A stretch of DNA of 64,000 nt from a phage. Position numbers and translations under genes: made by a program. Positions 8,058 to 21,964 of the stretch are shown here, in pieces. Below the pieces are notes generated by a model. It saw only the letters and a program-made list of their open reading frames with translations, did no database searches and was not told the DNA's origin. Location of the stretch: sequence record PV730302.1; one strand, written 5' to 3'. Positions within the stretch are counted from its first letter, which is position 1; each line of letters starts with the position of its first letter.

Positions 8058-8357
8058 TTAGAAAGAACCAGAACCTCTAATTGTGTTCTGGCGACCTTTA
8101 TTTTCTAATTCATAGTCGTCGATTTCGTAGGCTTGTGCTACACCAAAAGCCTTTTTAACTTTAGCTAAAGAGCCTTTAGACGTAACAATATTAAAAGTAT
8201 TACCTTTGGTAAAATCAACCAAATCCACTTGTACACCCTGTTTACCGAGGCTTGCTACAATAGCATCAACATATTCCTGGTCTAAATTGCCTTGAACTCC
8301 AATTTGAAATACTTTAGGAGCTTTGGCTTCTGTAATAAATTCTTGGTAAGTTTTCAT
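8058..8357 (-). CDS. internal-protein-like (capsid targeting sequence MKTYQEFITE)
   Basis: 99 aa; N-terminal 10 residues match the T4 IP capsid targeting sequence with an I-x-E cleavage motif; paralog of 21257-21565. Confidence 0.7.
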   Translation of the reverse strand: MKTYQEFITEAKAPKVFQIGVQGNLDQEYVDAIVASLGKQGVQVDLVDFTKGNTFNIVTSKGSLAKVKKAFGVAQAYEIDDYELENKGRQNTIRGSGSF

Positions 8358-8399
8358 ATTATTCCTTAAGTTGGTAGAAGTATTCTATCACGGATTTAA

Positions 8400-8816
8400 T
8401 TAAGCGTAAATCGCCTTACCATAATGTTTGTACCAGGTAGGGCGTTGTGCAATTTTTTCGTCCAAACGGGCTTGTGAAATGGCGATAGAAGCTTCGTGAG
8501 GAACATAATCATCACGGAATTCCTGAGGAATGTCACTAATGTCCTGGACAGTAGTATCCTTGATATTAAAACCACGTTTTAAACATTCGGCTATAAGCTC
8601 AATTTGTCGCTTACGTAAAAATTCAAGCTTATCGTAAAAGAATGTAACATGGCCTGTGCCAAGGATAAAAGTAGGACTGATTTTGAAATCACGGACACGT
8701 TTACCATTAGCAACATGCTTACGAACTGCACCGAAAACACGTGGTAATTCACGATATTCAGCCATTAAGTGTTGGTCAGCCAATTCAGATACTAAGGTAA
8801 GGTTGATACGAGTCAT
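8400..8816 (-). CDS. denV: endonuclease V, pyrimidine-dimer DNA glycosylase
   Basis: 138 aa; [31 protein letters not shown]... essentially identical to remembered T4 EndoV. Confidence 0.95.
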
Positions 8817-8832
8817 TTTTAATCTCCTGTAG

Positions 8833-8872
8833 TTGATAGGTCTATAGTATCATGACTACAGGAGATGTAAAC
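8833..8872 (-). promoter_or_regulatory. early promoter/stem-loop cassette upstream of denV
   Basis: same architecture; inverted repeat CTCCTGTAG/CTACAGGAG brackets the -10. Confidence 0.7.
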
Positions 8873-8896
8873 AACTTTTATCAAGTATCGGCTTTA

Positions 8897-9493
8897 TTAA
8901 TTACCACGGGCTGCATTAGCAACGGCGTAAGCGTACTGAATATTAGCGTCTTTAAACGTACCTTTAGAGGTATCTATTTCTGCCTTAAAGCCGCCTTTAG
9001 CCATAACATCGGCAAATTCTTTACGGAAAGTCATTGCATCAAGACCTTTCCATGTTGATTTGTGCTTGGCAAATTCAAGACCAGCGAAGTTGACAGCCTT
9101 AGCCAATTTATTATCAATAGTCCATTTACCTGCTTTAGGTACAAACACCGGGCCTTTCTGTTTAGAGAACAGTTTTAAATTCCAGCGACGAAGGTCACCG
9201 TCAGCTTTAACAAAAGCTGCGTCCAAGTTACTAGCAACAACATCTTGGATATGGGCAAATTTAAGTCCATCAGCTTCAATATTTAGGTCGTTACGCCAGC
9301 GAAGTCCTTCCCAGGCGAAAGCTTTAAAGTCGGAAGCTTTTGTAGCCAAGTACCGTTCAATAGGAGCTGTTTTAGCGTCAAAACCGTTTCCTGGGTTGTC
9401 AACGCCGTTTCCTTTGTAAGTCCACTCATCTTTATTAATGCCTTGGACCTTTCCTACAGAAGCTTCGGCGATAAATTCTTTATACGTTTTCAT
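8897..9493 (-). CDS. internal-protein-like (CTS MKTYKEFIAE), ipII/ipIII locus
   Basis: 198 aa; CTS at N-terminus; lies between denV and e as ipII/ipIII do in T4. Confidence 0.7.
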   Translation of the reverse strand: MKTYKEFIAEASVGKVQGINKDEWTYKGNGVDNPGNGFDAKTAPIERYLATKASDFKAFAWEGLRWRNDLNIEADGLKFAHIQDVVASNLDAAFVKADGDLRRWNLKLFSKQKGPVFVPKAGKWTIDNKLAKAVNFAGLEFAKHKSTWKGLDAMTFRKEFADVMAKGGFKAEIDTSKGTFKDANIQYAYAVANAARGN

Positions 9494-9540
9494 ACGGGTT
9501 CCTTAAAGGTAAATATTTTAATTGGTCTGTTCAAGTAACT

Positions 9541-9575
9541 GTAGATATACTATCACAATTCTAGGAGATGTAAAC
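9541..9575 (-). promoter_or_regulatory. early promoter, degenerate cassette variant
   Basis: GTTTAC at 9570-9575 (minus sense); core GTAGATATACTATCA. Confidence 0.45.
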
Positions 9576-9974
9576 TTATTTGTAGGTCTTCATCCAATTC
9601 TTGAACAAAGCCGCGACGTCTTTCTCTTTAACGTTCAGTTTAATGTCCAACATTTTACCACCGGCAGCACGTGTCTGACGAATCTTAGCAGTACCGGTTT
9701 CGCCATTCCACTCAACATAATACTGCCCAGTGTTCATTGCAATACCATCGCCGTAGTCTTCATTTTTAGAAGTTGTGAAGGCCAGCTTCATAGTCTTAGA
9801 TACACGAGCCTGCATGCCAGTCTGAAGGGCATTACGAACGCGAATAACTTGAGGAGTGGCCTGGGTCAGGTTCTCATTCAGTTCTTCAGTGAACTCTTCA
9901 GATTCAAACATCGCCAAAAGTTCTTTAGATGCAGGAATTACATTCTCTGCGATAAATTCATTATAAGTTTTCAT
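9576..9974 (-). CDS. internal-protein-like ([13 protein letters not shown]), ipII/ipIII locus
   Basis: 132 aa; CTS at N-terminus; immediately downstream of e. Confidence 0.7.
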
Positions 9975-10455
9975 ATGCTTTCCAAGTACCTGTTTTAAAT
10001 GTTGAAATCACGCGCTTAGCACGATTAGGAGTTTGTTTATACCAACGGGATTGAGCCAGGTTAACTGCCGCATCGTTCCAACGTTTCTGTTGGAGCATAC
10101 GTAAAGAGTTAGTGAACCCTGCTACGCCTGCTTCACCCATTTGGAAGACCATGTTAATTAAAGCACAACGACGAACTTCGTCCAGTACATCATAAACAGG
10201 TTTCAATTTAGGATTACGCAGAATAGCTCTACGAGCATTTTCAACCGATCGGTTAAAGAGTTGTTCAGCTTCAGCCATAGTAATACGACCATTACAAACT
10301 CGACCCATAAGCTTATCAAGTTCAGCACGAGCAACATCTTTAGAAGGGTTCTTAGTAATCAATTGGCCAATACCAATAGTCCAATAACCTTCAGTGTCTT
10401 TATAAAGATTTAAATCAAGACCTTCGTCTTGACGTAACATATCAAAAATATCCAT
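9961..10455 (-). CDS. e: endolysin (T4 lysozyme family)
   Basis: 164 aa; [13 protein letters not shown]...[13 protein letters not shown] with E11, D20, T26 conserved; same length as T4 lysozyme. Confidence 0.95.
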
Positions 10456-10478
10456 AATACCTCCTGAGTATAGGAGGT

Positions 10479-10486
10479 ATTTATAT
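10479..10486 (-). promoter_or_regulatory. late promoter TATAAATA for gene e, adjoining the SD-sequestering hairpin
   Basis: minus sense TATAAATA-CCTCCT-ATACTC-AGGAGG-TATT-ATG. Confidence 0.7.
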
Positions 10487-10932
10487 CAAAAGAGCGAATC
10501 TAAAACCTTAAACATCGACGGGCCCATGACATATTCCCATTGCGGACGTTTAATCAAAGCGAACGCATCGAATTCAGGAATAGTACGACCATCAGGGAAC
10601 GTATGGTAAGCCGTACATTTGCAATCCTTGAACTGCTCGTGTTCCACAGGCACTGTATATAAGAACAGATGTAGATTCTTATTGCTTGAATATTTGAACT
10701 CACCCAGGTCTTTCAGGAATGCAGGATCGTATGCTGTGAATCCAATCTCTTCTTCGGTTTCGCGCATTGCCGCTTGAATAGGCTCTTCGCCTGGTTCGAC
10801 ATGGCCTTTAGGAATGTCCCATTTATGACGCATGTTCTCTGGATTACGAGAGCCTGTTACACGACCCATGACCAGTTCTTTATCAACGGTCATGAACAAA
10901 ATACCTGCCGATAATTCCTTAGCTTTCTTACC
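10486..10932 (-). CDS. nudE: Nudix hydrolase
   Basis: Nudix box GHVEPGEEPIQAAMRETEEEIGF; start set at internal MGKKAKEL (149 aa, T4 NudE is about 151). Confidence 0.8.
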   Translation of the reverse strand, partial: GKKAKELSAGILFMTVDKELVMGRVTGSRNPENMRHKWDIPKGHVEPGEEPIQAAMRETEEEIGFTAYDPAFLKDLGEFKYSSNKNLHLFLYTVPVEHEQFKDCKCTAYHTFPDGRTIPEFDAFALIKRPQWEYVMGPSMFKVLDSLF

Positions 10933-11164
10933 CATCGTCTCGTTCCCATGATTGTTTAAAAATATCTTGCATAATAATTTGAAGTCTATTTTCTGATGAT
11001 GGACTTTCACTATCAGACACTTGAAGCATATAGTCACCAATAGGACAGAACATATCCATATCGCTTTCTAAGTCTTCTTTAATTTTCTCTTCTGATGTTC
11101 CGGTATCATAGGAATACAGATAAGAATCACATGACTCAGATTTAATATAAATTGCAATACTCAT
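10928..11164 (-). CDS. hypothetical small acidic protein
   Basis: ORF track 78 aa. Confidence 0.35.
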   Translation of the reverse strand: MSIAIYIKSESCDSYLYSYDTGTSEEKIKEDLESDMDMFCPIGDYMLQVSDSESPSSENRLQIIMQDIFKQSWERDDG

Positions 11165-11748
11165 TTACGGCATTCCTTAATAAAAGAGTTTAATGTATTT
11201 TTCTTAGTGATATCGTCATATACCTTTTTAACTTTAGAAATACGAAAAGGTACTTCGATAACAGAGGTCCATAAAAATGATGCGATAAGACCCAAGATAG
11301 CAGCAGACATCGCTGAAGCGAATACACAAATAGGCAGGTCATTATCTGTTGTCAGGAAAAACCATAGGAGTGGGAAAAATAATATACCCATCCAAACATA
11401 GAATCTAGAACTCACCAATTTGTCGTATTCATCACTCCATGCACGGAAGCCGTATTTTTTGCTATAACAAATCAATGGGTCTGGAGTCTGTTCTTTATGT
11501 GGTTCCGCTTGCCAGCCGTTTACGATATAGCCCATTTTATATTCCTCAATTAAAAGCTGTTTCATTTCGGCAGTACAACCTGACCAATCTATTGTACTGG
11601 CTGAAATTCCTTCATCACCGTCATCGATATTTCGCCAGGACTTTTTAATAATCATAGTCTCACCACTTGGGATAATAATTCCAGCATTTTCCGACCGACG
11701 GATGAAGTTTGTATCAATACCCATACAACCAGGTTCATAAAGGGCCAT
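11161..11748 (-). CDS. membrane protein with C-terminal ...NSFIKECRK motif
   Basis: 195 aa; two hydrophobic helices; C-terminus paralogous to ORFs at 15802-16155 and 16148-16684. Confidence 0.5.
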   Translation of the reverse strand: MALYEPGCMGIDTNFIRRSENAGIIIPSGETMIIKKSWRNIDDGDEGISASTIDWSGCTAEMKQLLIEEYKMGYIVNGWQAEPHKEQTPDPLICYSKKYGFRAWSDEYDKLVSSRFYVWMGILFFPLLWFFLTTDNDLPICVFASAMSAAILGLIASFLWTSVIEVPFRISKVKKVYDDITKKNTLNSFIKECRK

Positions 11749-12437
11749 TACCAGCCCTCCATAGGGAATTCCAGATATACTTGAGCATTAACGCGGATTT
11801 CATTTGTAATCTTTTTAACACGGTCTGTATTACGAGACACACGACCAAACCAGCGCCACCCATTACTTACTGCACGAGAACCTGTATGCCATGTCTGCCA
11901 ATCAAACTGGAGCAACGTGCGGTCAGGAGCATCCCACTTGGTTAATTCATTGGACTCAATTTTTTCCAGAACTTCTTTATGCCACTGGCGATAGATAAGT
12001 TCGCCTTCAGGAATCTGACTGAACTGTGCAGTTCCGGTTGCAAAATGAGTAGGACACACATCAGCATTAACAAGACCAAGAATATGTTCAGAATGGTATC
12101 GAGGATTATCATAATCAGGTTGCCCTGCGGTAATAAAGTGTTGACCCACCGGAATATCCGGGCGTGGTACATCATCATGGTGGAAGCCTGGAATTGCAGG
12201 GTACCAGCCAGGCATTAACATGTGTACACGGGAATCAAATACAATATCAGGGCCACATTGCCAATCTTCAGGCAGGTTTTCAATAAAGCTACGAGTAATA
12301 GGACCACCGTGTTTATGAGCAAAATAAGCATCGCAATTAAAGAACATAGGCTCATTTTTAATCATATCATTACTGATATCTTGAGCAAAACCACCGACTG
12401 CACGAGCTTGAGAATTAAAAGTTTTCGGGCCGTTCAT
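11748..12437 (-). CDS. hypothetical protein (His/Asp-rich, possible metal-dependent enzyme)
   Basis: 229 aa ORF; GFHHDDVPRPD and HSEH motifs. Confidence 0.5.
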   Translation of the reverse strand: MNGPKTFNSQARAVGGFAQDISNDMIKNEPMFFNCDAYFAHKHGGPITRSFIENLPEDWQCGPDIVFDSRVHMLMPGWYPAIPGFHHDDVPRPDIPVGQHFITAGQPDYDNPRYHSEHILGLVNADVCPTHFATGTAQFSQIPEGELIYRQWHKEVLEKIESNELTKWDAPDRTLLQFDWQTWHTGSRAVSNGWRWFGRVSRNTDRVKKITNEIRVNAQVYLEFPMEGW

Positions 12438-12451
12438 AATATTTTCCTCAC

Positions 12452-12666
12452 TTACTTTTTGTTGAAAAAGTACATTTTACCTTTAGGGGATAAGGATACA
12501 CGAAGTGCGTTACCAATACCAACTGAACATTTAACCAGGTCAGCAGATTTCAATTCACCAAATGCTTGACGAAGGTCACCGTCACGAGTGTTAACCATCA
12601 GGCATTTAGCACCAGCTGCACGAACTTCGTTTAACATGTTGATTGCTTGGTTAGAAAGTTTCATTT
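12452..12666 (-). CDS. hypothetical protein
   Basis: start moved to MKLSNQ (SD GGAG 6 nt upstream); early promoter cassette directly upstream. Confidence 0.5.
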
Positions 12667-12690
12667 TATTCTCCATTTCACTCTGTTGTT

Positions 12691-12730
12691 TTGATAGGTC
12701 TATAGTATCACACCTATAGACCTTGTACAC
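12691..12730 (-). promoter_or_regulatory. early promoter/stem-loop cassette (core TTGATAGGTCTATAGTATCA; -35 GTGTAC)
   Basis: inverted repeat GGTCTATAGG/CCTATAGACC; upstream of ORF 12452-12666. Confidence 0.6.
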
Positions 12731-12742
12731 TGTTTTGTGTAA

Positions 12743-13702
12743 TTATTTTTCGAAAGGACGAATTAAATGTTGGTTATCTTGGAAACGCTTGATGTAGTCG
12801 TTTTCACCTAAAGTCTTGTACATATTAACCACCGCTTGGTAGTTTTCCCAGGCGTACTCGCGGAACCAACCTGAAGTGATTGAGGTGCACACTTTCTCAA
12901 GAGCCATATAGAAACTTAATGATGGCGAAATATTAAAGTCATTAGGAACCTGTGAACGTTCTAGTGCCAGGACACAAGTTTCTTCATACACACCGGCCAA
13001 TTTAATAGCTTCAGGCAAAGCTTCAAACTTCTCACGAGAGGTCATGACTTCAGAACCATCCTTCATATAAAAGGTATATGCAGGGCGGCCTGCCAATGCT
13101 ACTGCTTCGTGGATGGAGTCATGGTCCAGCGTATAAATGGTATCATTAAAGAATGATGATTTGTTAACGTCTAATTTAGGGTGAGAATAGCTCAACGTTT
13201 CTTTTTGACGTTGCAGCATAATTTCCTGGAGTTCTTCGTTCAGGGTCACGCCTTTATTACGAAGGTATTTGATGTGGGACATAGTTTTCAAGAAGAACGG
13301 ATTATTCTTAAGGAAACGATGAGAGGTTTTGATAGCCAGACAGATATCAGGGGTTGCCCAATAGAAACCAGTAAGACGGTCCTTTTTAATATGATTTTCA
13401 GCATATTTCAGGAGACGATAGCTTGAAGTGAAATCTTCGTCTTGAAGCTCACCGGTAATTTCTCGTACGTTAGTCAGAGCACGAACGATATAAGCTTCAA
13501 AATAGGTTTCTTTACCATTATGCATACATTTGAAAGCCTGGACATCAGGATTGTCAACGTGTACATGGGCACCAAACATCCGAGCTTTAAAGTGATTCCA
13601 TGAGCCTTGGTCGGCAATGAAATCCCAATCAGAATTTTCGATATGCTTACTTTCAATCAGACCAGCGTGGTGCAGTGCACGAGAACCAATAACTAACATC
13701 AT
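12743..13702 (-). CDS. hypothetical 319-aa protein, possible nucleotidyltransferase fold
   Basis: N-terminus IGSRALHH...SDWDF loosely resembles a GS...DxD motif (spacing atypical). Confidence 0.5.
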   Translation of the reverse strand: MMLVIGSRALHHAGLIESKHIENSDWDFIADQGSWNHFKARMFGAHVHVDNPDVQAFKCMHNGKETYFEAYIVRALTNVREITGELQDEDFTSSYRLLKYAENHIKKDRLTGFYWATPDICLAIKTSHRFLKNNPFFLKTMSHIKYLRNKGVTLNEELQEIMLQRQKETLSYSHPKLDVNKSSFFNDTIYTLDHDSIHEAVALAGRPAYTFYMKDGSEVMTSREKFEALPEAIKLAGVYEETCVLALERSQVPNDFNISPSLSFYMALEKVCTSITSGWFREYAWENYQAVVNMYKTLGENDYIKRFQDNQHLIRPFEK

Positions 13703-13715
13703 AATATTTTCCTCA

Positions 13716-13883
13716 TTAGTAGAGACGAGTTACTTCATATTTACCTAGTTCAGATTTTTTTGCTTCAATACGCGTGGCGGCGAGATTAGCGGCCTCTAGT
13801 GAAGAAAATTGAACCACTTGTGAAGTATTCTGCCTTACGCCACCTTGTGGGTGAGTAACAAAAACAATAAGAACATTATACAT
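13716..13883 (-). CDS. hypothetical small protein
   Basis: internal start MYNVLIV with SD GAGGAAAA upstream. Confidence 0.35.
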   Translation of the reverse strand: MYNVLIVFVTHPQGGVRQNTSQVVQFSSLEAANLAATRIEAKKSELGKYEVTRLY

Positions 13884-13902
13884 AATATTTTCCTCAGATA
13901 AC

Positions 13903-14142
13903 TTAAATTTCGGCAACGTAAGTGTTATGCAATTCCCACATATCATCAGAATTGCTCTTAATGATAGGGATTATCTCATTAGAGATTTCTTCAGCATAAG
14001 GGTCATTGATACAGTGGGCATCTTCAAAACGAACACCGTAATCAGACTTCTTATAGGCAAAGCCATAAATCTTTTTAAACTTGGCACGGGTAATGCGTAC
14101 CGGTTCATTAGACTTATCAGACAACGGAGAGTAATACCACAT
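13903..14142 (-). CDS. hypothetical protein
   Basis: ORF track 79 aa. Confidence 0.4.
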   Translation of the reverse strand: MWYYSPLSDKSNEPVRITRAKFKKIYGFAYKKSDYGVRFEDAHCINDPYAEEISNEIIPIIKSNSDDMWELHNTYVAEI

Positions 14143-14185
14143 ATGTTCTCCTCATGTTTGTGTAGGGTAATAGTAACACGTATTT

Positions 14186-14536
14186 TTAGAGTTGTACATC
14201 ACTTCTGCAATATTCTAAAAATAATTTATCGTTGTCTACCGTATCCCAACGACGCCAAGATGGATTCCAGACCAAAGCGTTGTCACCACAATCATTGAGC
14301 TTAAAATGGTCGTAGTACATAGCTATACGTCTAGTTTCGTCACCAGAGAACCCCAGTATAGGCTCGCCGTGGGTGTGATACATATGATGGTGCATTGAGA
14401 GGTCGCATTTGTAAAACATCTCACGTTTACCACGAACGAACAAGAAGGCTTGCCCATTCATATAGAATTCTTTATCTGTTTTCAAAAGATATTTGAATAC
14501 TGAATCTTTATGCATAAGTCCTCCTACCACATCCAT
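14186..14536 (-). CDS. hypothetical protein (His-rich HHHMYHTH segment)
   Basis: ORF track 116 aa. Confidence 0.45.
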   Translation of the reverse strand: MDVVGGLMHKDSVFKYLLKTDKEFYMNGQAFLFVRGKREMFYKCDLSMHHHMYHTHGEPILGFSGDETRRIAMYYDHFKLNDCGDNALVWNPSWRRWDTVDNDKLFLEYCRSDVQL

Positions 14537-14545
14537 GTGGTTAAA

Positions 14546-14773
14546 TTATTTTCCTAACGAAACACGAGTAGGTTTTTTACCAAAATAGTCTTCGTAAGAA
14601 CCATCTAAACGGCCTGCTTTAGACCGACAATACGAATCATACTTTTTGTAATAAGTCATCTCGGTATTATAACGTGGGTGTCTATCAGCCATAATAATAC
14701 TTAACGGCCAACCTTTGGCATAATCGCGAAGACCATTTATTTTACGAATGTATCTTTTCTTTAATTTTAGCAT
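14546..14773 (-). CDS. hypothetical basic protein
   Basis: ORF track 75 aa. Confidence 0.4.
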   Translation of the reverse strand: MLKLKKRYIRKINGLRDYAKGWPLSIIMADRHPRYNTEMTYYKKYDSYCRSKAGRLDGSYEDYFGKKPTRVSLGK

Positions 14774-14991
14774 GAGCTCGGATACCAGATTTTACCATCG
14801 GCCTGAGCAACGAAGGTGCGACCAGCTTCTTCACCATAACAAGAGCTATTCAGCCAATCTTCGAGACGAACTTCACCGTCATAATCATCGAGCTCAACAC
14901 CGAAATCCTGGGCAGAAGCCATATCTTTTACTTTCTTATACAGTGCAGCCAGTTCAAGAGCAGCTTTTTCTAATTCATTAATATCAGACAT
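14767..14991 (-). CDS. C-terminal-Cys family small protein, member 4 (ends WYPSSC)
   Basis: start set at MSDINELEK; shares N-terminal helix, central aromatic/Gly motif and terminal W-x-SS-x-C with three upstream paralogs. Confidence 0.55.
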   Translation of the reverse strand: MSDINELEKAALELAALYKKVKDMASAQDFGVELDDYDGEVRLEDWLNSSCYGEEAGRTFVAQADGKIWYPSSC

Positions 14992-15001
14992 TTTTATTTC
15001 C

Positions 15002-15214
15002 TTAGCAAGACATAGAAGAAGTAAACCAGAAACCATCACCATCAGGAATGCCGTAATCATCACGGACCCATTCATAATCATCATATTCCGGGTTCTTTGG
15101 AGAAATGTATTGTCCACGACCAGAAACATGGAACTCTTCACCCGTTTCGTCAGCCACAGACTGGCCTTTACGTACTAATTCACGGATTTGGTTTTCAATT
15201 TCATCAATAGTCAT
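15002..15214 (-). CDS. C-terminal-Cys family small protein, member 3 (ends WFTSSMSC)
   Basis: ORF track 70 aa; paralog. Confidence 0.55.
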   Translation of the reverse strand: MTIDEIENQIRELVRKGQSVADETGEEFHVSGRGQYISPKNPEYDDYEWVRDDYGIPDGDGFWFTSSMSC

Positions 15215-15223
15215 TTTATTTCC

Positions 15224-15505
15224 TTAACATTCAGAAGAAGAGGACACCCAACCACCATTTTCTAGGCTGGTAGTGTAATCATGTTGGTTTACAATAGCGT
15301 ACTGAGCTTCACCGTATTCTTCCCAGTGGGCAAGGTCGGCTTTCAAGGCGCCAGGAGAATAATAGTCACCGCCCATACCGCGAGCAGGGTATATATTAAA
15401 ATGAGTCTCATATTTGTTTGCAATTTCCTCGGCACGACGAATAGCTTTATGGATATCATTTACTGCTTCAGCCAATTCTTTATTTTTATGGTAATCATTC
15501 ATCAT
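15224..15505 (-). CDS. C-terminal-Cys family small protein, member 2 (ends GWVSSSSEC)
   Basis: ORF track 93 aa; paralog. Confidence 0.55.
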   Translation of the reverse strand: MMNDYHKNKELAEAVNDIHKAIRRAEEIANKYETHFNIYPARGMGGDYYSPGALKADLAHWEEYGEAQYAIVNQHDYTTSLENGGWVSSSSEC

Positions 15506-15514
15506 AGCGTTTCC

Positions 15515-15805
15515 TTAGCACATTGCCGAAGAGGAGATCCAAGCACCAACTGTAACGACGCCATTTTCAACTTCACCACCGTTGTTTTCAATTTCATCTT
15601 TAAACCACTGGGAGCATTCATAACCGACAGGATAATATGTACGGCCTGAACCATAATCACCGGTACCGAATTGGATACCATACTTATCGGCAATAGCTTC
15701 ACATTCATGTTCGATGGTATTCACTTTATTCAGAAGAGCATAGATAGCCTTTTCTGCAGATTTCTCGTCATTGTGTTCCGGGATTTCAATTTCAATTTTA
15801 TTCAT
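15515..15805 (-). CDS. C-terminal-Cys family small protein, member 1 (ends AWISSSAMC)
   Basis: ORF track 96 aa; paralog. Confidence 0.55.
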   Translation of the reverse strand: MNKIEIEIPEHNDEKSAEKAIYALLNKVNTIEHECEAIADKYGIQFGTGDYGSGRTYYPVGYECSQWFKDEIENNGGEVENGVVTVGAWISSSAMC

Positions 15806-16155
15806 GATTTACATTCCTTAATAAAGGTTTCAAGGTCATTACGTTTAGTTTGTTTTACATACTCATTATAATTAGCCATAGCTAAAGCATATCTCTTTTT
15901 ACGTGGCTTGTTTATTTTATTAGTTTGGGCAATATCAAAGACCCATGGGATAAAAAATCCTATTAAAGCCGGAACCCAAATCCATGCAAGGCTCATATCT
16001 TCAAACGGATGGCGAGGCATACCATTAATAATCCCACCGACAAGAAATCCAATTATCCCTGCAGTCATACTAGTAGCAATGCCGAGGAATAAGGAAATAG
16101 CTATATCATAATCTGCTAATGCGTAACCAGGGTCGGTTTTACTAGGCTTATGCAT
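15802..16155 (-). CDS. membrane protein with C-terminal ...ETFIKECKS motif
   Basis: start set at MHKPSK (SD AAGAGG upstream); TM helices; C-terminus paralogous to 11161-11748. Confidence 0.5.
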   Translation of the reverse strand: MHKPSKTDPGYALADYDIAISLFLGIATSMTAGIIGFLVGGIINGMPRHPFEDMSLAWIWVPALIGFFIPWVFDIAQTNKINKPRKKRYALAMANYNEYVKQTKRNDLETFIKECKS

Positions 16156-16684
16156 TTTGAACCTCTTTAGCGTATTCGCGACATTCAGCAATAAAACGAT
16201 TAAGCTTACGTTGTTGTTTACGACTTTCTAATGTGTACTCATTAGCCAAAATAATAAGCTCATCTTTATCGTAATTTTTAATATCAGAGTAAGATGGGCG
16301 ACGGTCAACCATTCCAAATACATCACCATTTTCTAAAGCTACATAACATACTAAATGGTAATCATCGTCTGCCATATTAAGAAGCACACAATCAGCGCTC
16401 TCGTTTAAAGAATATACCGAATAACGTAGTCCAGCGAATTCCACTCGTTGAATAGCCAGATTTACGTCAATAATTTCCAAAGCATCTTCAAAAGAAAGGT
16501 CTTCAGCTAAAGCAAAAATAAAAGGTAATTTGGTAGTATCGCCACGGCTAGATGTTCTGCTTAAGAAATCGTTTGAATAGCCTAGGTCTTGGCGAATTCT
16601 ATAAAGAACTGAATTAGTTTCATGTGAAAGACCACTATGCTTAAACCAATCAATATTTGATATCAGGTCGTCATATAAACTCAT
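16148..16684 (-). CDS. hypothetical protein with C-terminal ...LNRFIAECREY motif
   Basis: ORF track 178 aa. Confidence 0.5.
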   Translation of the reverse strand: MSLYDDLISNIDWFKHSGLSHETNSVLYRIRQDLGYSNDFLSRTSSRGDTTKLPFIFALAEDLSFEDALEIIDVNLAIQRVEFAGLRYSVYSLNESADCVLLNMADDDYHLVCYVALENGDVFGMVDRRPSYSDIKNYDKDELIILANEYTLESRKQQRKLNRFIAECREYAKEVQNA

Positions 16685-21924: not shown

Positions 21925-21964
21925 TTGATAGGTCTATAGTATCATGCCTATAGACCTTGTAAAC
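21925..21964 (-). promoter_or_regulatory. early promoter/stem-loop cassette (core TTGATAGGTCTATAGTATCA)
   Basis: GTTTAC at 21959-21964 in minus sense; inverted repeat GGTCTATAGG/CCTATAGACC. Confidence 0.65.

Follow-up and report, generated by a model that had tools for sequence, protein, structure and literature searches.

Does the leader of the endolysin gene in this phage delay lysozyme synthesis in the same way as the leader of gene e in T4? Control of T4 gene e was described by McPheeters et al. (1986, Nucleic Acids Res 14:5813) and is reviewed by Uzan & Miller (2010, PMC3014915), the source that we cite here. According to this review, longer early transcripts, which reach into e and form an inhibitory structure, yield 100-fold less lysozyme. 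RNAs made from the late promoters do not contain the 5′ strand of the structure and are translated well, and the mapped 5′ ends of T4 e transcripts are those produced by the upstream late promoter (legend of Fig. 5 in PMC3014915). The initial annotation of the DNA studied here, a stretch of 64,000 nucleotides from sequence record PV730302.1 (henceforth, the window), had cited the T4 mechanism in terms that agree with this account, and had suggested that control of endolysin timing is conserved. Our analysis supports that suggestion on several grounds: the leader has the elements of the switch in the appropriate geometry, its predicted energetics agree, gene e is orthologous to that of T4 and has the same neighbours, and the arrangement is conserved within the Tevenvirinae. 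The combination of sequence, structure prediction and comparative analysis makes it very probable that the leader is the Dhakavirus version of the temporal switch of T4 gene e.

The mechanism has been known since 1986, and its conservation among T4 relatives has already been predicted in print: in PMC3014915, similar e leaders are predicted for close T4-type relatives, each with a late promoter within the DNA that encodes the 5′ strand, and phages Aeh1, 44RR, 25, 31 and FelixO1 are listed as having no such structure in the e leader. Neither JS98 nor Dhakavirus is named in that text. A literature search on late promoters or e regulation in JS98 or Dhakavirus retrieved nothing specific, and the main text of a time-resolved omics paper on T4 does not mention lysozyme.

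Gene e and its leader

The window phage is a Dhakavirus of the JS98/QL01/WG01 group. Over a 1-kb region, identity is 99.1% with Escherichia phage QL01, 98.3% with WG01 and 91.8% with JS98, all of them members of the JS98 group, and five other phages from the same set of matches (JS10, MN04, NC-G, CLB_P2 and dhabil) are classified as Dhakavirus. The product of gene e is 100% identical to a protein of Escherichia phage WG01. Its alignment with T4 lysozyme is gap-free over the full 164 amino acids and contains 122 identical residues, with E11, D20 and T26 kept; the resulting identity, 74%, is near the "roughly 70 percent" of the initial annotation and slightly higher. As in T4, e is preceded on this strand by nudE and followed by two internal-protein-like genes and a further ORF. 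Judging from its N-terminus, the last ORF is probably a counterpart of T4 endonuclease V (denV). The internal-protein-like gene that overlaps the end of e is probably carried on the same late transcript.

When read on the minus strand, positions 10490-10453 are tt-TGA-TATAAATA-CCTCCT-ATACTC-AGGAGG-TATT-ATG. The stretch from TATAAATA to ATG (10485-10453) had been reported letter by letter in the initial annotation, and the string proved exact. A 6-bp stem formed by CCTCCT and AGGAGG had also been described there. Pairing with the Shine-Dalgarno sequence (SD) stands; the length of the stem does not, as AATACCTCCT (10481-10472) and AGGAGGTATT (10465-10456) are complementary over their whole length, and the perfect inverted repeat comprises 10 Watson-Crick pairs. 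The stem reaches into the promoter, whose last four bases (AATA) belong to the 5′ arm. On the other side of the promoter, the TGA stop codon of nudE (10488-10486) abuts the octamer; the stop codon is 4 nt away from the stem base, and the SD is found 21 nt past the stop. The e promoter contains the sole NATAAATA of the minus strand within 8300-16500. Coordinates of all these features are given in Table 1.

Table 1. Features of the gene e region in the window.
Feature	Position	Strand	Basis or remark
Nearest upstream T4-type early promoter, TGTACA..17 nt..TG-A-TACTAT	12702..12729	-	Sequence motif
nudE, NUDIX hydrolase, gene upstream of e	10486..10935	-	Pfam NUDIX 7.6e-15; labelled nudix hydrolase or nudE in relatives
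TATAAATA octamer, T4-type (gp55) late promoter element	10478..10485	-	Taken as -13 to -6 (rule: PMC1524935)
Hairpin 5′ arm, AAUACCUCCU (DNA AATACCTCCT)	10472..10481	-	Contains the anti-SD CCUCCU (10477-10472); shares the last 4 nt of the promoter
Predicted late transcription start, U10472 (+1 by rule) or adjacent purine A10471	10471..10472	-	Inferred from the rule in PMC1524935
Hairpin loop, AUACUC, 6 nt	10466..10471	-	Sequence, fold and alignment
Hairpin 3′ arm, AGGAGGUAUU (DNA AGGAGGTATT)	10456..10465	-	SD AGGAGG (10465-10460) and spacer UAUU (10459-10456)
Start codon of e, ATG	10455-10453	-	Directly after the stem, unpaired
Gene e, T4-type lysozyme (endolysin), 164 aa	9961..10455	-	ORF; Pfam Phage_lysozyme 1e-12
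Internal-protein-like gene, overlaps the end of e by 14 nt	9576..9974	-	IpII/IpIII internal head protein in IME08 and JS98

The leader of T4 gene e reads TAA-TTT-TATAAATA-CCTTC-TATAAATA-CTT-AGGAGG-TATT-ATG or, if divided like that of the window, TATAAATA-CCTTCT-ATAAATACTT-AGGAGG-TATT-ATG. Both leaders align base for base except for three differences. One is a T→C change in the arm of the window leader, which turns a G·U pair of T4 (CCUUCU) into a G-C pair. Another affects the loop, which in T4 has 10 nt and contains a second TATAAATA, while the loop of the window is 4 nt shorter (6 nt) and the second octamer is gone. The third is one further substitution in the loop. Two late promoters are thus found in the T4 leader, whereas the window has a single NATAAATA before e; this single promoter is found where T4 has its upstream promoter, the one to which transcript 5′ ends have been mapped. 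In addition, the predicted T4 helix continues past a 1-nt bulge and takes in the AUG, which in the window lies just outside the stem. The remaining traits are shared: the SD AGGAGG, the spacer UAUU, the AUG, an anti-SD placed directly after a TATAAATA late promoter, nudE upstream and internal proteins downstream. Predicted hairpin stabilities are also alike, with -14.1 kcal/mol in the window and about -13 to -15 kcal/mol in T4.

A comparable logic is described in PMC3014915 for T4 I-TevI, soc and gene 49 and for the mobE hairpin of Aeh1, where the SD and/or the AUG is sequestered in a helix formed by early or middle read-through RNA; in I-TevI, a late promoter adjoins the 5′ strand of the helix, and the late RNA is translatable. 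These genes differ from e and their leaders are not homologous to the e leader; the likeness considered here is one of logic.

Proposed early read-through and late start

The course of events that we propose can be summarised as follows. Early in infection, RNA polymerase coming from upstream early promoters, the nearest of which is at 12729-12702, would cross a packed gene array and nudE and would enter e. In the long RNA made in this manner, AAUACCUCCU would pair with AGGAGGUAUU, and the entire SD would be buried in a 10-bp hairpin that ends at the AUG. With the SD buried, the 30S subunit would therefore be unable to initiate on the long RNA; e mRNA would be present and lysozyme would be absent. 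After the onset of DNA replication, RNA polymerase directed by gp55 would use the TATAAATA element located within the DNA that encodes the 5′ arm, and would start transcription some 6 nt downstream of the octamer, at U10472 or A10471. The late RNA would contain the loop and the 3′ arm and would be devoid of the 5′ arm, leaving the ribosome site open for lysozyme synthesis. In this phage, three of these points are inferred: that early RNA reads through into e, where late RNA starts, and how strongly translation is affected.

The minus strand contains a family of T4-type early promoters with the form TTTAC(A/T)..TG-n-TACTAT. From the promoter at 12729-12702 down to e, genes are co-directional and either overlap or abut, and a terminator scan of the minus strand between this promoter and the e start detected no terminator-like site. 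Judging from the sequence, this promoter is a likely source of early read-through RNA into e, and read-through from nudE to e seems plausible.

The late-promoter rule places TATAAATA at -13 to -6 and the start 6 nt past the octamer (PMC1524935). The initial annotation had located the late start just after TATAAATA. The rule moves +1 to the last base of the arm, and by the same rule the 5′ arm is missing from the late RNA, as had been claimed. A10471 appears equally plausible as a late start, and of the 10 nt that make up the 5′ arm, 9-10 are expected to be missing from the predicted late RNA.

The initial annotation had proposed a comparison of fold energies for early and late 5′ ends, and the calculation agreed with its expectation: opening of the ribosome site is predicted to require about 15-16 kcal/mol in the former and about 5 kcal/mol in the latter. 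Specifically, with RNA 5′ ends placed 33, 60, 150 or 300 nt before the AUG, 14.7-16.1 kcal/mol are needed to open a 30-nt ribosome site, and the probability that the SD is unpaired is 0.013 in the predicted ensemble. If the 5′ end is moved to any position from 10473 to 10470, the predicted cost becomes 4.7-5.5 kcal/mol and the probability of an unpaired SD becomes 0.21-0.24. The cost in the late RNA is close to the median of the window (about 4.1 kcal/mol for 78 gene starts). With a start at 10476, just four bases upstream, the predicted cost is already 8.5 kcal/mol, and the geometry of the switch is therefore tight. A point against the switch is that, even in the late RNA, the SD is unpaired in only around 22% of the predicted ensemble because of a weak alternative pairing, rich in A-U and G-U, with codons 2-6; this alternative fold is no better than those of shuffled sequences.

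According to de Smit and van Duin, a difference of 10 kcal/mol in the stability of an initiation site reportedly causes a very large drop in translation. The predicted difference between long and late RNA, roughly 10 kcal/mol, is consistent with the 100-fold figure of T4.

Specificity and conservation of the arrangement

The 33-nt leader segment has a predicted folding energy of -14.1 kcal/mol, compared with -4.1 ± 2.1 kcal/mol for dinucleotide shuffles (z = -4.75), and none of 200 shuffles was as good. If perfect hairpins are counted in the 64-kb window (stem ≥10 bp, loop 3-10 nt), the total is four, versus 0.8 ± 1.0 in shuffles. When the 78 ORF starts of the window that are preceded by an SD were ranked by the energy lost on forcing the region from -16 to +3 open, e occupied the second position, with -14.1 kcal/mol against a median of -4.1 kcal/mol. 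Comparison of the leader with the covariance models of Rfam 15 did not identify a family; the three matches obtained (E 2-9) are all to the opposite strand, with scores well short of the gathering thresholds.

The window contains 19 TATAAATA sites, against 7.3 ± 2.5 expected, an enrichment that fits a phage with late promoters of the T4 type. The sequence CCTCC is present at -5 to -1 in the e promoter only. At the other 18 sites the five bases before +1 are A/T-rich, as exemplified by ttaat, aatta and aaaat. CCTCC, present at one site of 19, is thus not a generic feature of late promoters, and the idea that it might be a general late-promoter trait was rejected. The presence of an anti-SD at the e promoter is best explained by the need for pairing with the SD. 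A point against the proposed promoter is that CCTCC at -5 to -1 is unusually rich in G+C for a late promoter; the mapped upstream promoter of T4 is similar, with CCTTC.

Roughly 1,000 Straboviridae records contain an e homologue with an identity of at least 60%. To survey other phages, e leaders were gathered from IMG/VR contigs and from named GenBank phages, and 14 representatives spanning at least nine named Tevenvirinae genera were compared. The arrangement is present in the Dhakavirus group (the window phage, JS98 and VR5), in T4 (Tequatrovirus), JS09 (Mosigvirus), SP18 (Gaprivervirus), CIP9 (Kanagawavirus), CC31 (Karamvirus) and JD18 (Jiaodavirus), and in PEi20, Pectobacterium phage PM2, Serratia phage CBH8, Citrobacter phage Ci1 and the contig L019. 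All 14 leaders have NATAAATA (CTAAATA in Ci1), an anti-SD that directly follows or surrounds it, and then a paired SD. The minimum free energy (MFE) hairpins range from -11.7 to -17.8 kcal/mol. In 13 representatives, the MFE structure contains a wholly paired SD; in the remaining one, SP18, the automatic SD call gives half, and the SD GGGGG pairs with an anti-SD CCCC. The predicted +1 lies past the anti-SD in each of the 14. In CC31, if the aligned AATAAATA is considered the octamer, the start is placed as in PEi20. Among 17 aligned related e leaders, TAAATA is invariant and ATAAATA is found in 15.

Four lysozyme-homologue outgroups, Aeromonas phages AsFcp_4 and AS-gz (Straboviridae), Klebsiella phage KP13-26 and Escherichia phage tuntematon (Stephanstirmvirinae), showed neither the motif nor the hairpin, with z values from -1.2 to +1.5. 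The survey matches PMC3014915 on both points, the existence of leaders with the structure and that of phages without it.

Outside the SD, the stem varies by lineage and is complementary within each. An outward extension, AAUA/UAUU, is found in Dhakavirus, Tequatrovirus, Mosigvirus and Gaprivervirus, and an inward extension, UAU(C)/(G)AUA, in the group made of Karamvirus, Kanagawavirus, PEi20, PM2, CBH8 and JD18. Variants within Dhakavirus are structure-neutral: C or A in the loop (AUACUC or AUAAUC), T>A or T>G at -13, a C>U change that gives a G·U pair in NC-G, and a one-base bulge in JS98 and JS10. A leader identical to that of the window is present in QL01, IME281, CLB_P2 and dhabil. A second TATAAATA was detected only in the Tequatrovirus leaders of the sample (T4, L011-L014 and RPN226). 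Hence, the one-promoter form is the common form in the sample, and the two-promoter form of T4 is not the typical one.

For pair counts, a covariance model was built from six leaders and 13 leaders were aligned to it. A plain MAFFT alignment left stems of the Karamvirus/Kanagawavirus type one column off the Dhakavirus/T4 register, and was not used for this purpose. In the structure-guided alignment of 13 leaders, 83.9% of the cells are paired, compared with 38-55% in slid controls; column shuffles were uninformative. No pair changed on both sides in these 13 leaders because the 3′ arm, being the SD, cannot vary. At the sequence level, comparative support is therefore of a particular kind: conservation together with lineage-specific stem extension, and not classical covariation.

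Other readings of the hairpin and uses of the leader

The hairpin begins 4 nt past the nudE stop, and one may ask whether it serves mainly nudE, either as an intrinsic terminator or as a 3′ stabilising stem-loop, the hiding of the e SD being incidental. Its stability (-14.1 kcal/mol) would suit such a role, and the UAUUAU that follows the inner 6-bp stem is fairly U-rich. The complete 10-bp stem is, however, followed by AUGGAUAU and not by a run of U, and the terminator scan was negative. Moreover, the homologous structure of T4 lets early transcripts into e, according to PMC3014915. An element devoted to nudE would need neither a 3′ arm that is the SD of e nor a 5′ arm that follows a late promoter, yet both are found in every lineage, and JD18 retains the hairpin behind a different upstream gene. 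A main role in nudE expression is, in our opinion, very improbable. A Rho-independent terminator was rejected, as the scan did not flag the site and the G+C-rich stem has AUGGAUAU after it instead of a U run. We consider it extremely improbable that the inverted repeat is a functionless by-product, whether of chance or of a strong SD beside a promoter. Around 0.8 perfect 10-bp hairpins per 64 kb are expected by chance, two-sided changes are absent from the covariation test, and the window does contain a palindrome that exists for structural reasons, located between divergent genes (25361/25408) with opposed SDs and opposed TATAAATA elements. At e, in contrast, no divergent gene can account for the anti-SD, and CCTCC follows the octamer at just one of 19 late promoter sites. 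At least nine named genera keep the anti-SD at precisely this position despite divergence of flanks, loops and stem extensions, and the homologous structure of T4 has been validated experimentally (PMC3014915).

A different view would grant the hairpin a role in e expression and make it both a coupler and a timer. The hairpin would prevent independent initiation only, and ribosomes ending at the UGA of nudE would unwind it, thus permitting low, nudE-dependent synthesis of lysozyme at early times. The footprint of a terminating ribosome extends some 12-15 nt downstream; the nudE stop (10488-10486) is near the stem base (10481), and the upstream stop is likewise close to the promoter and stem in T4, JS09, SP18, CIP9 and CC31. 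On the other hand, T4 has the same geometry and yields 100-fold less lysozyme from long transcripts, as described in PMC3014915, so that coupling, if it occurs, must be weak. In addition, 21 nt separate the nudE stop from the SD, and the hairpin can refold fast. We regard this view as quite unlikely, and keep coupling as a minor modifier of the T4-type switch, one that could allow an early leak.

A broader speculation, which we still consider unlikely, is that the one-promoter, perfect 10-bp form might be the general and possibly ancestral e switch of the Tevenvirinae, the two-promoter form of T4 being an elaboration specific to Tequatrovirus, and that ribosomes terminating at nudE might open the hairpin, whose base is a few nucleotides from the upstream stop in the nudE-linked leaders examined, to provide a tunable, translation-coupled leak in place of a purely structural block.

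If the T4-type switch operates as proposed, the classic endolysin timing device would be intact in JS98-type coliphages, which are common candidates for phage therapy. In transcriptomes, abundance of early e mRNA should not be read as lysozyme synthesis. The leader would also constitute a compact, 33-nt cassette for late-only translation, which could be used to delay expression of a payload in engineered T4-like phages. For annotation, it fixes the start codon of e and marks the late promoter; in several close relatives, e is currently labelled either "hypothetical protein" or "baseplate hub + tail lysozyme".

Spacer between divergent late genes

Two late genes are divergently transcribed from a 46-nt spacer that is itself a near-palindrome, with two opposed copies each of TATAAATA and GGAGG. 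One of them encodes gp53; the product of the other possibly represents the homologue of the head-completion protein gp4. When the 78 ORF starts preceded by a Shine-Dalgarno (SD) sequence were ranked by the energy needed to open the ribosome binding site, starts 25361 and 25408 came 1st and 7th. In read-through RNA crossing the spacer in either direction, the SD lies inside a predicted hairpin of about -15 kcal/mol, and late transcripts would in each case lack the CCUCC arm. The palindrome may have arisen as a consequence of the divergent arrangement, or it may act as a second switch resembling the one at the lysozyme gene e, where the late promoter overlaps the 5' arm of an SD-hiding hairpin.

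Coordinates of the divergent late genes and of the early-promoter cassettes
Feature	Position	Strand	Remarks
149-aa protein, TnsA-like-N domain	start 25361	minus	late gene
gp53, baseplate wedge protein	start 25408	plus	late gene, divergent from the 149-aa gene
Early-promoter cassette	12696-12729	minus	recurrent sequence and stem-loop
Early-promoter cassette	21930-21963	minus	recurrent sequence and stem-loop
Related cassette site	18186-18159	minus	
Related cassette site	8871-8844	minus	

Other hairpins at starts and promoters

The 195-aa ORF 11161-11748 (minus strand, start 11748) has its SD and AUG in a predicted 11-bp hairpin (-13.7 kcal/mol, rank 4 among the same 78 starts) whose pairing partner is the ORF's own first codons (UAUGGAGGGCUGGUAAUGGCCCUUUAU). 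Because this start overlaps the stop codon of the upstream 229-aa ORF, the arrangement suggests that translation would occur by coupling only.

An early-promoter sequence recurs on the minus strand, (T)GTACA/TTTACA-AGGTCTATAGG..TGATACTATAGACCTATCAAAACAA, with the -10 region enclosed by a perfect 10-bp stem-loop. The stem-loops of the two cassettes account for half of the only four perfect hairpins in the window (stem of at least 10 bp, loop of 3-10 nt). The cassettes appear similar to those known as 'promoter-early stem-loop' (PeSL) cassettes, which have been described for T4-type phages.

Lysozyme gene e, its homologues and its neighbours

SD-sequestering hairpins are also predicted before lysozyme homologues of 40-54% identity on IMG/VR contigs, most of them much smaller than a T4-type genome; the hairpin region is about 60 nt upstream of the homologue. 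The predicted stem is UUCCUU/AAGGAA in one set (L022-L029), while those of the other (L032-L036) are of the CCUC...GAGG kind with 10 or more pairs, and three of the latter carry CATAAATA within the 5' arm. The e-type device may have been adopted convergently here.

In the GenBank entries for close relatives, the e orthologue is labelled 'hypothetical protein' in QL01, WG01, MX01 and IME540, and 'baseplate hub + tail lysozyme' in NC-G. The gene so labelled is the soluble endolysin e.

Several minus-strand ORFs (starts 9974, 9493, ~8356, ~21895 and ~21590) share the N-terminus MKTY(N/K/Q)EFI.., which is the capsid-targeting leader of internal proteins. The first of the set, ORF 9576-9974 (minus strand), shares 14 nt with the end of e. 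It lacks a dedicated late promoter, and its expression therefore probably relies on that of e. The internal-protein-like ORFs that follow are equipped with T4-type early promoters of their own (9574-9547 and 8410-8382, minus strand).
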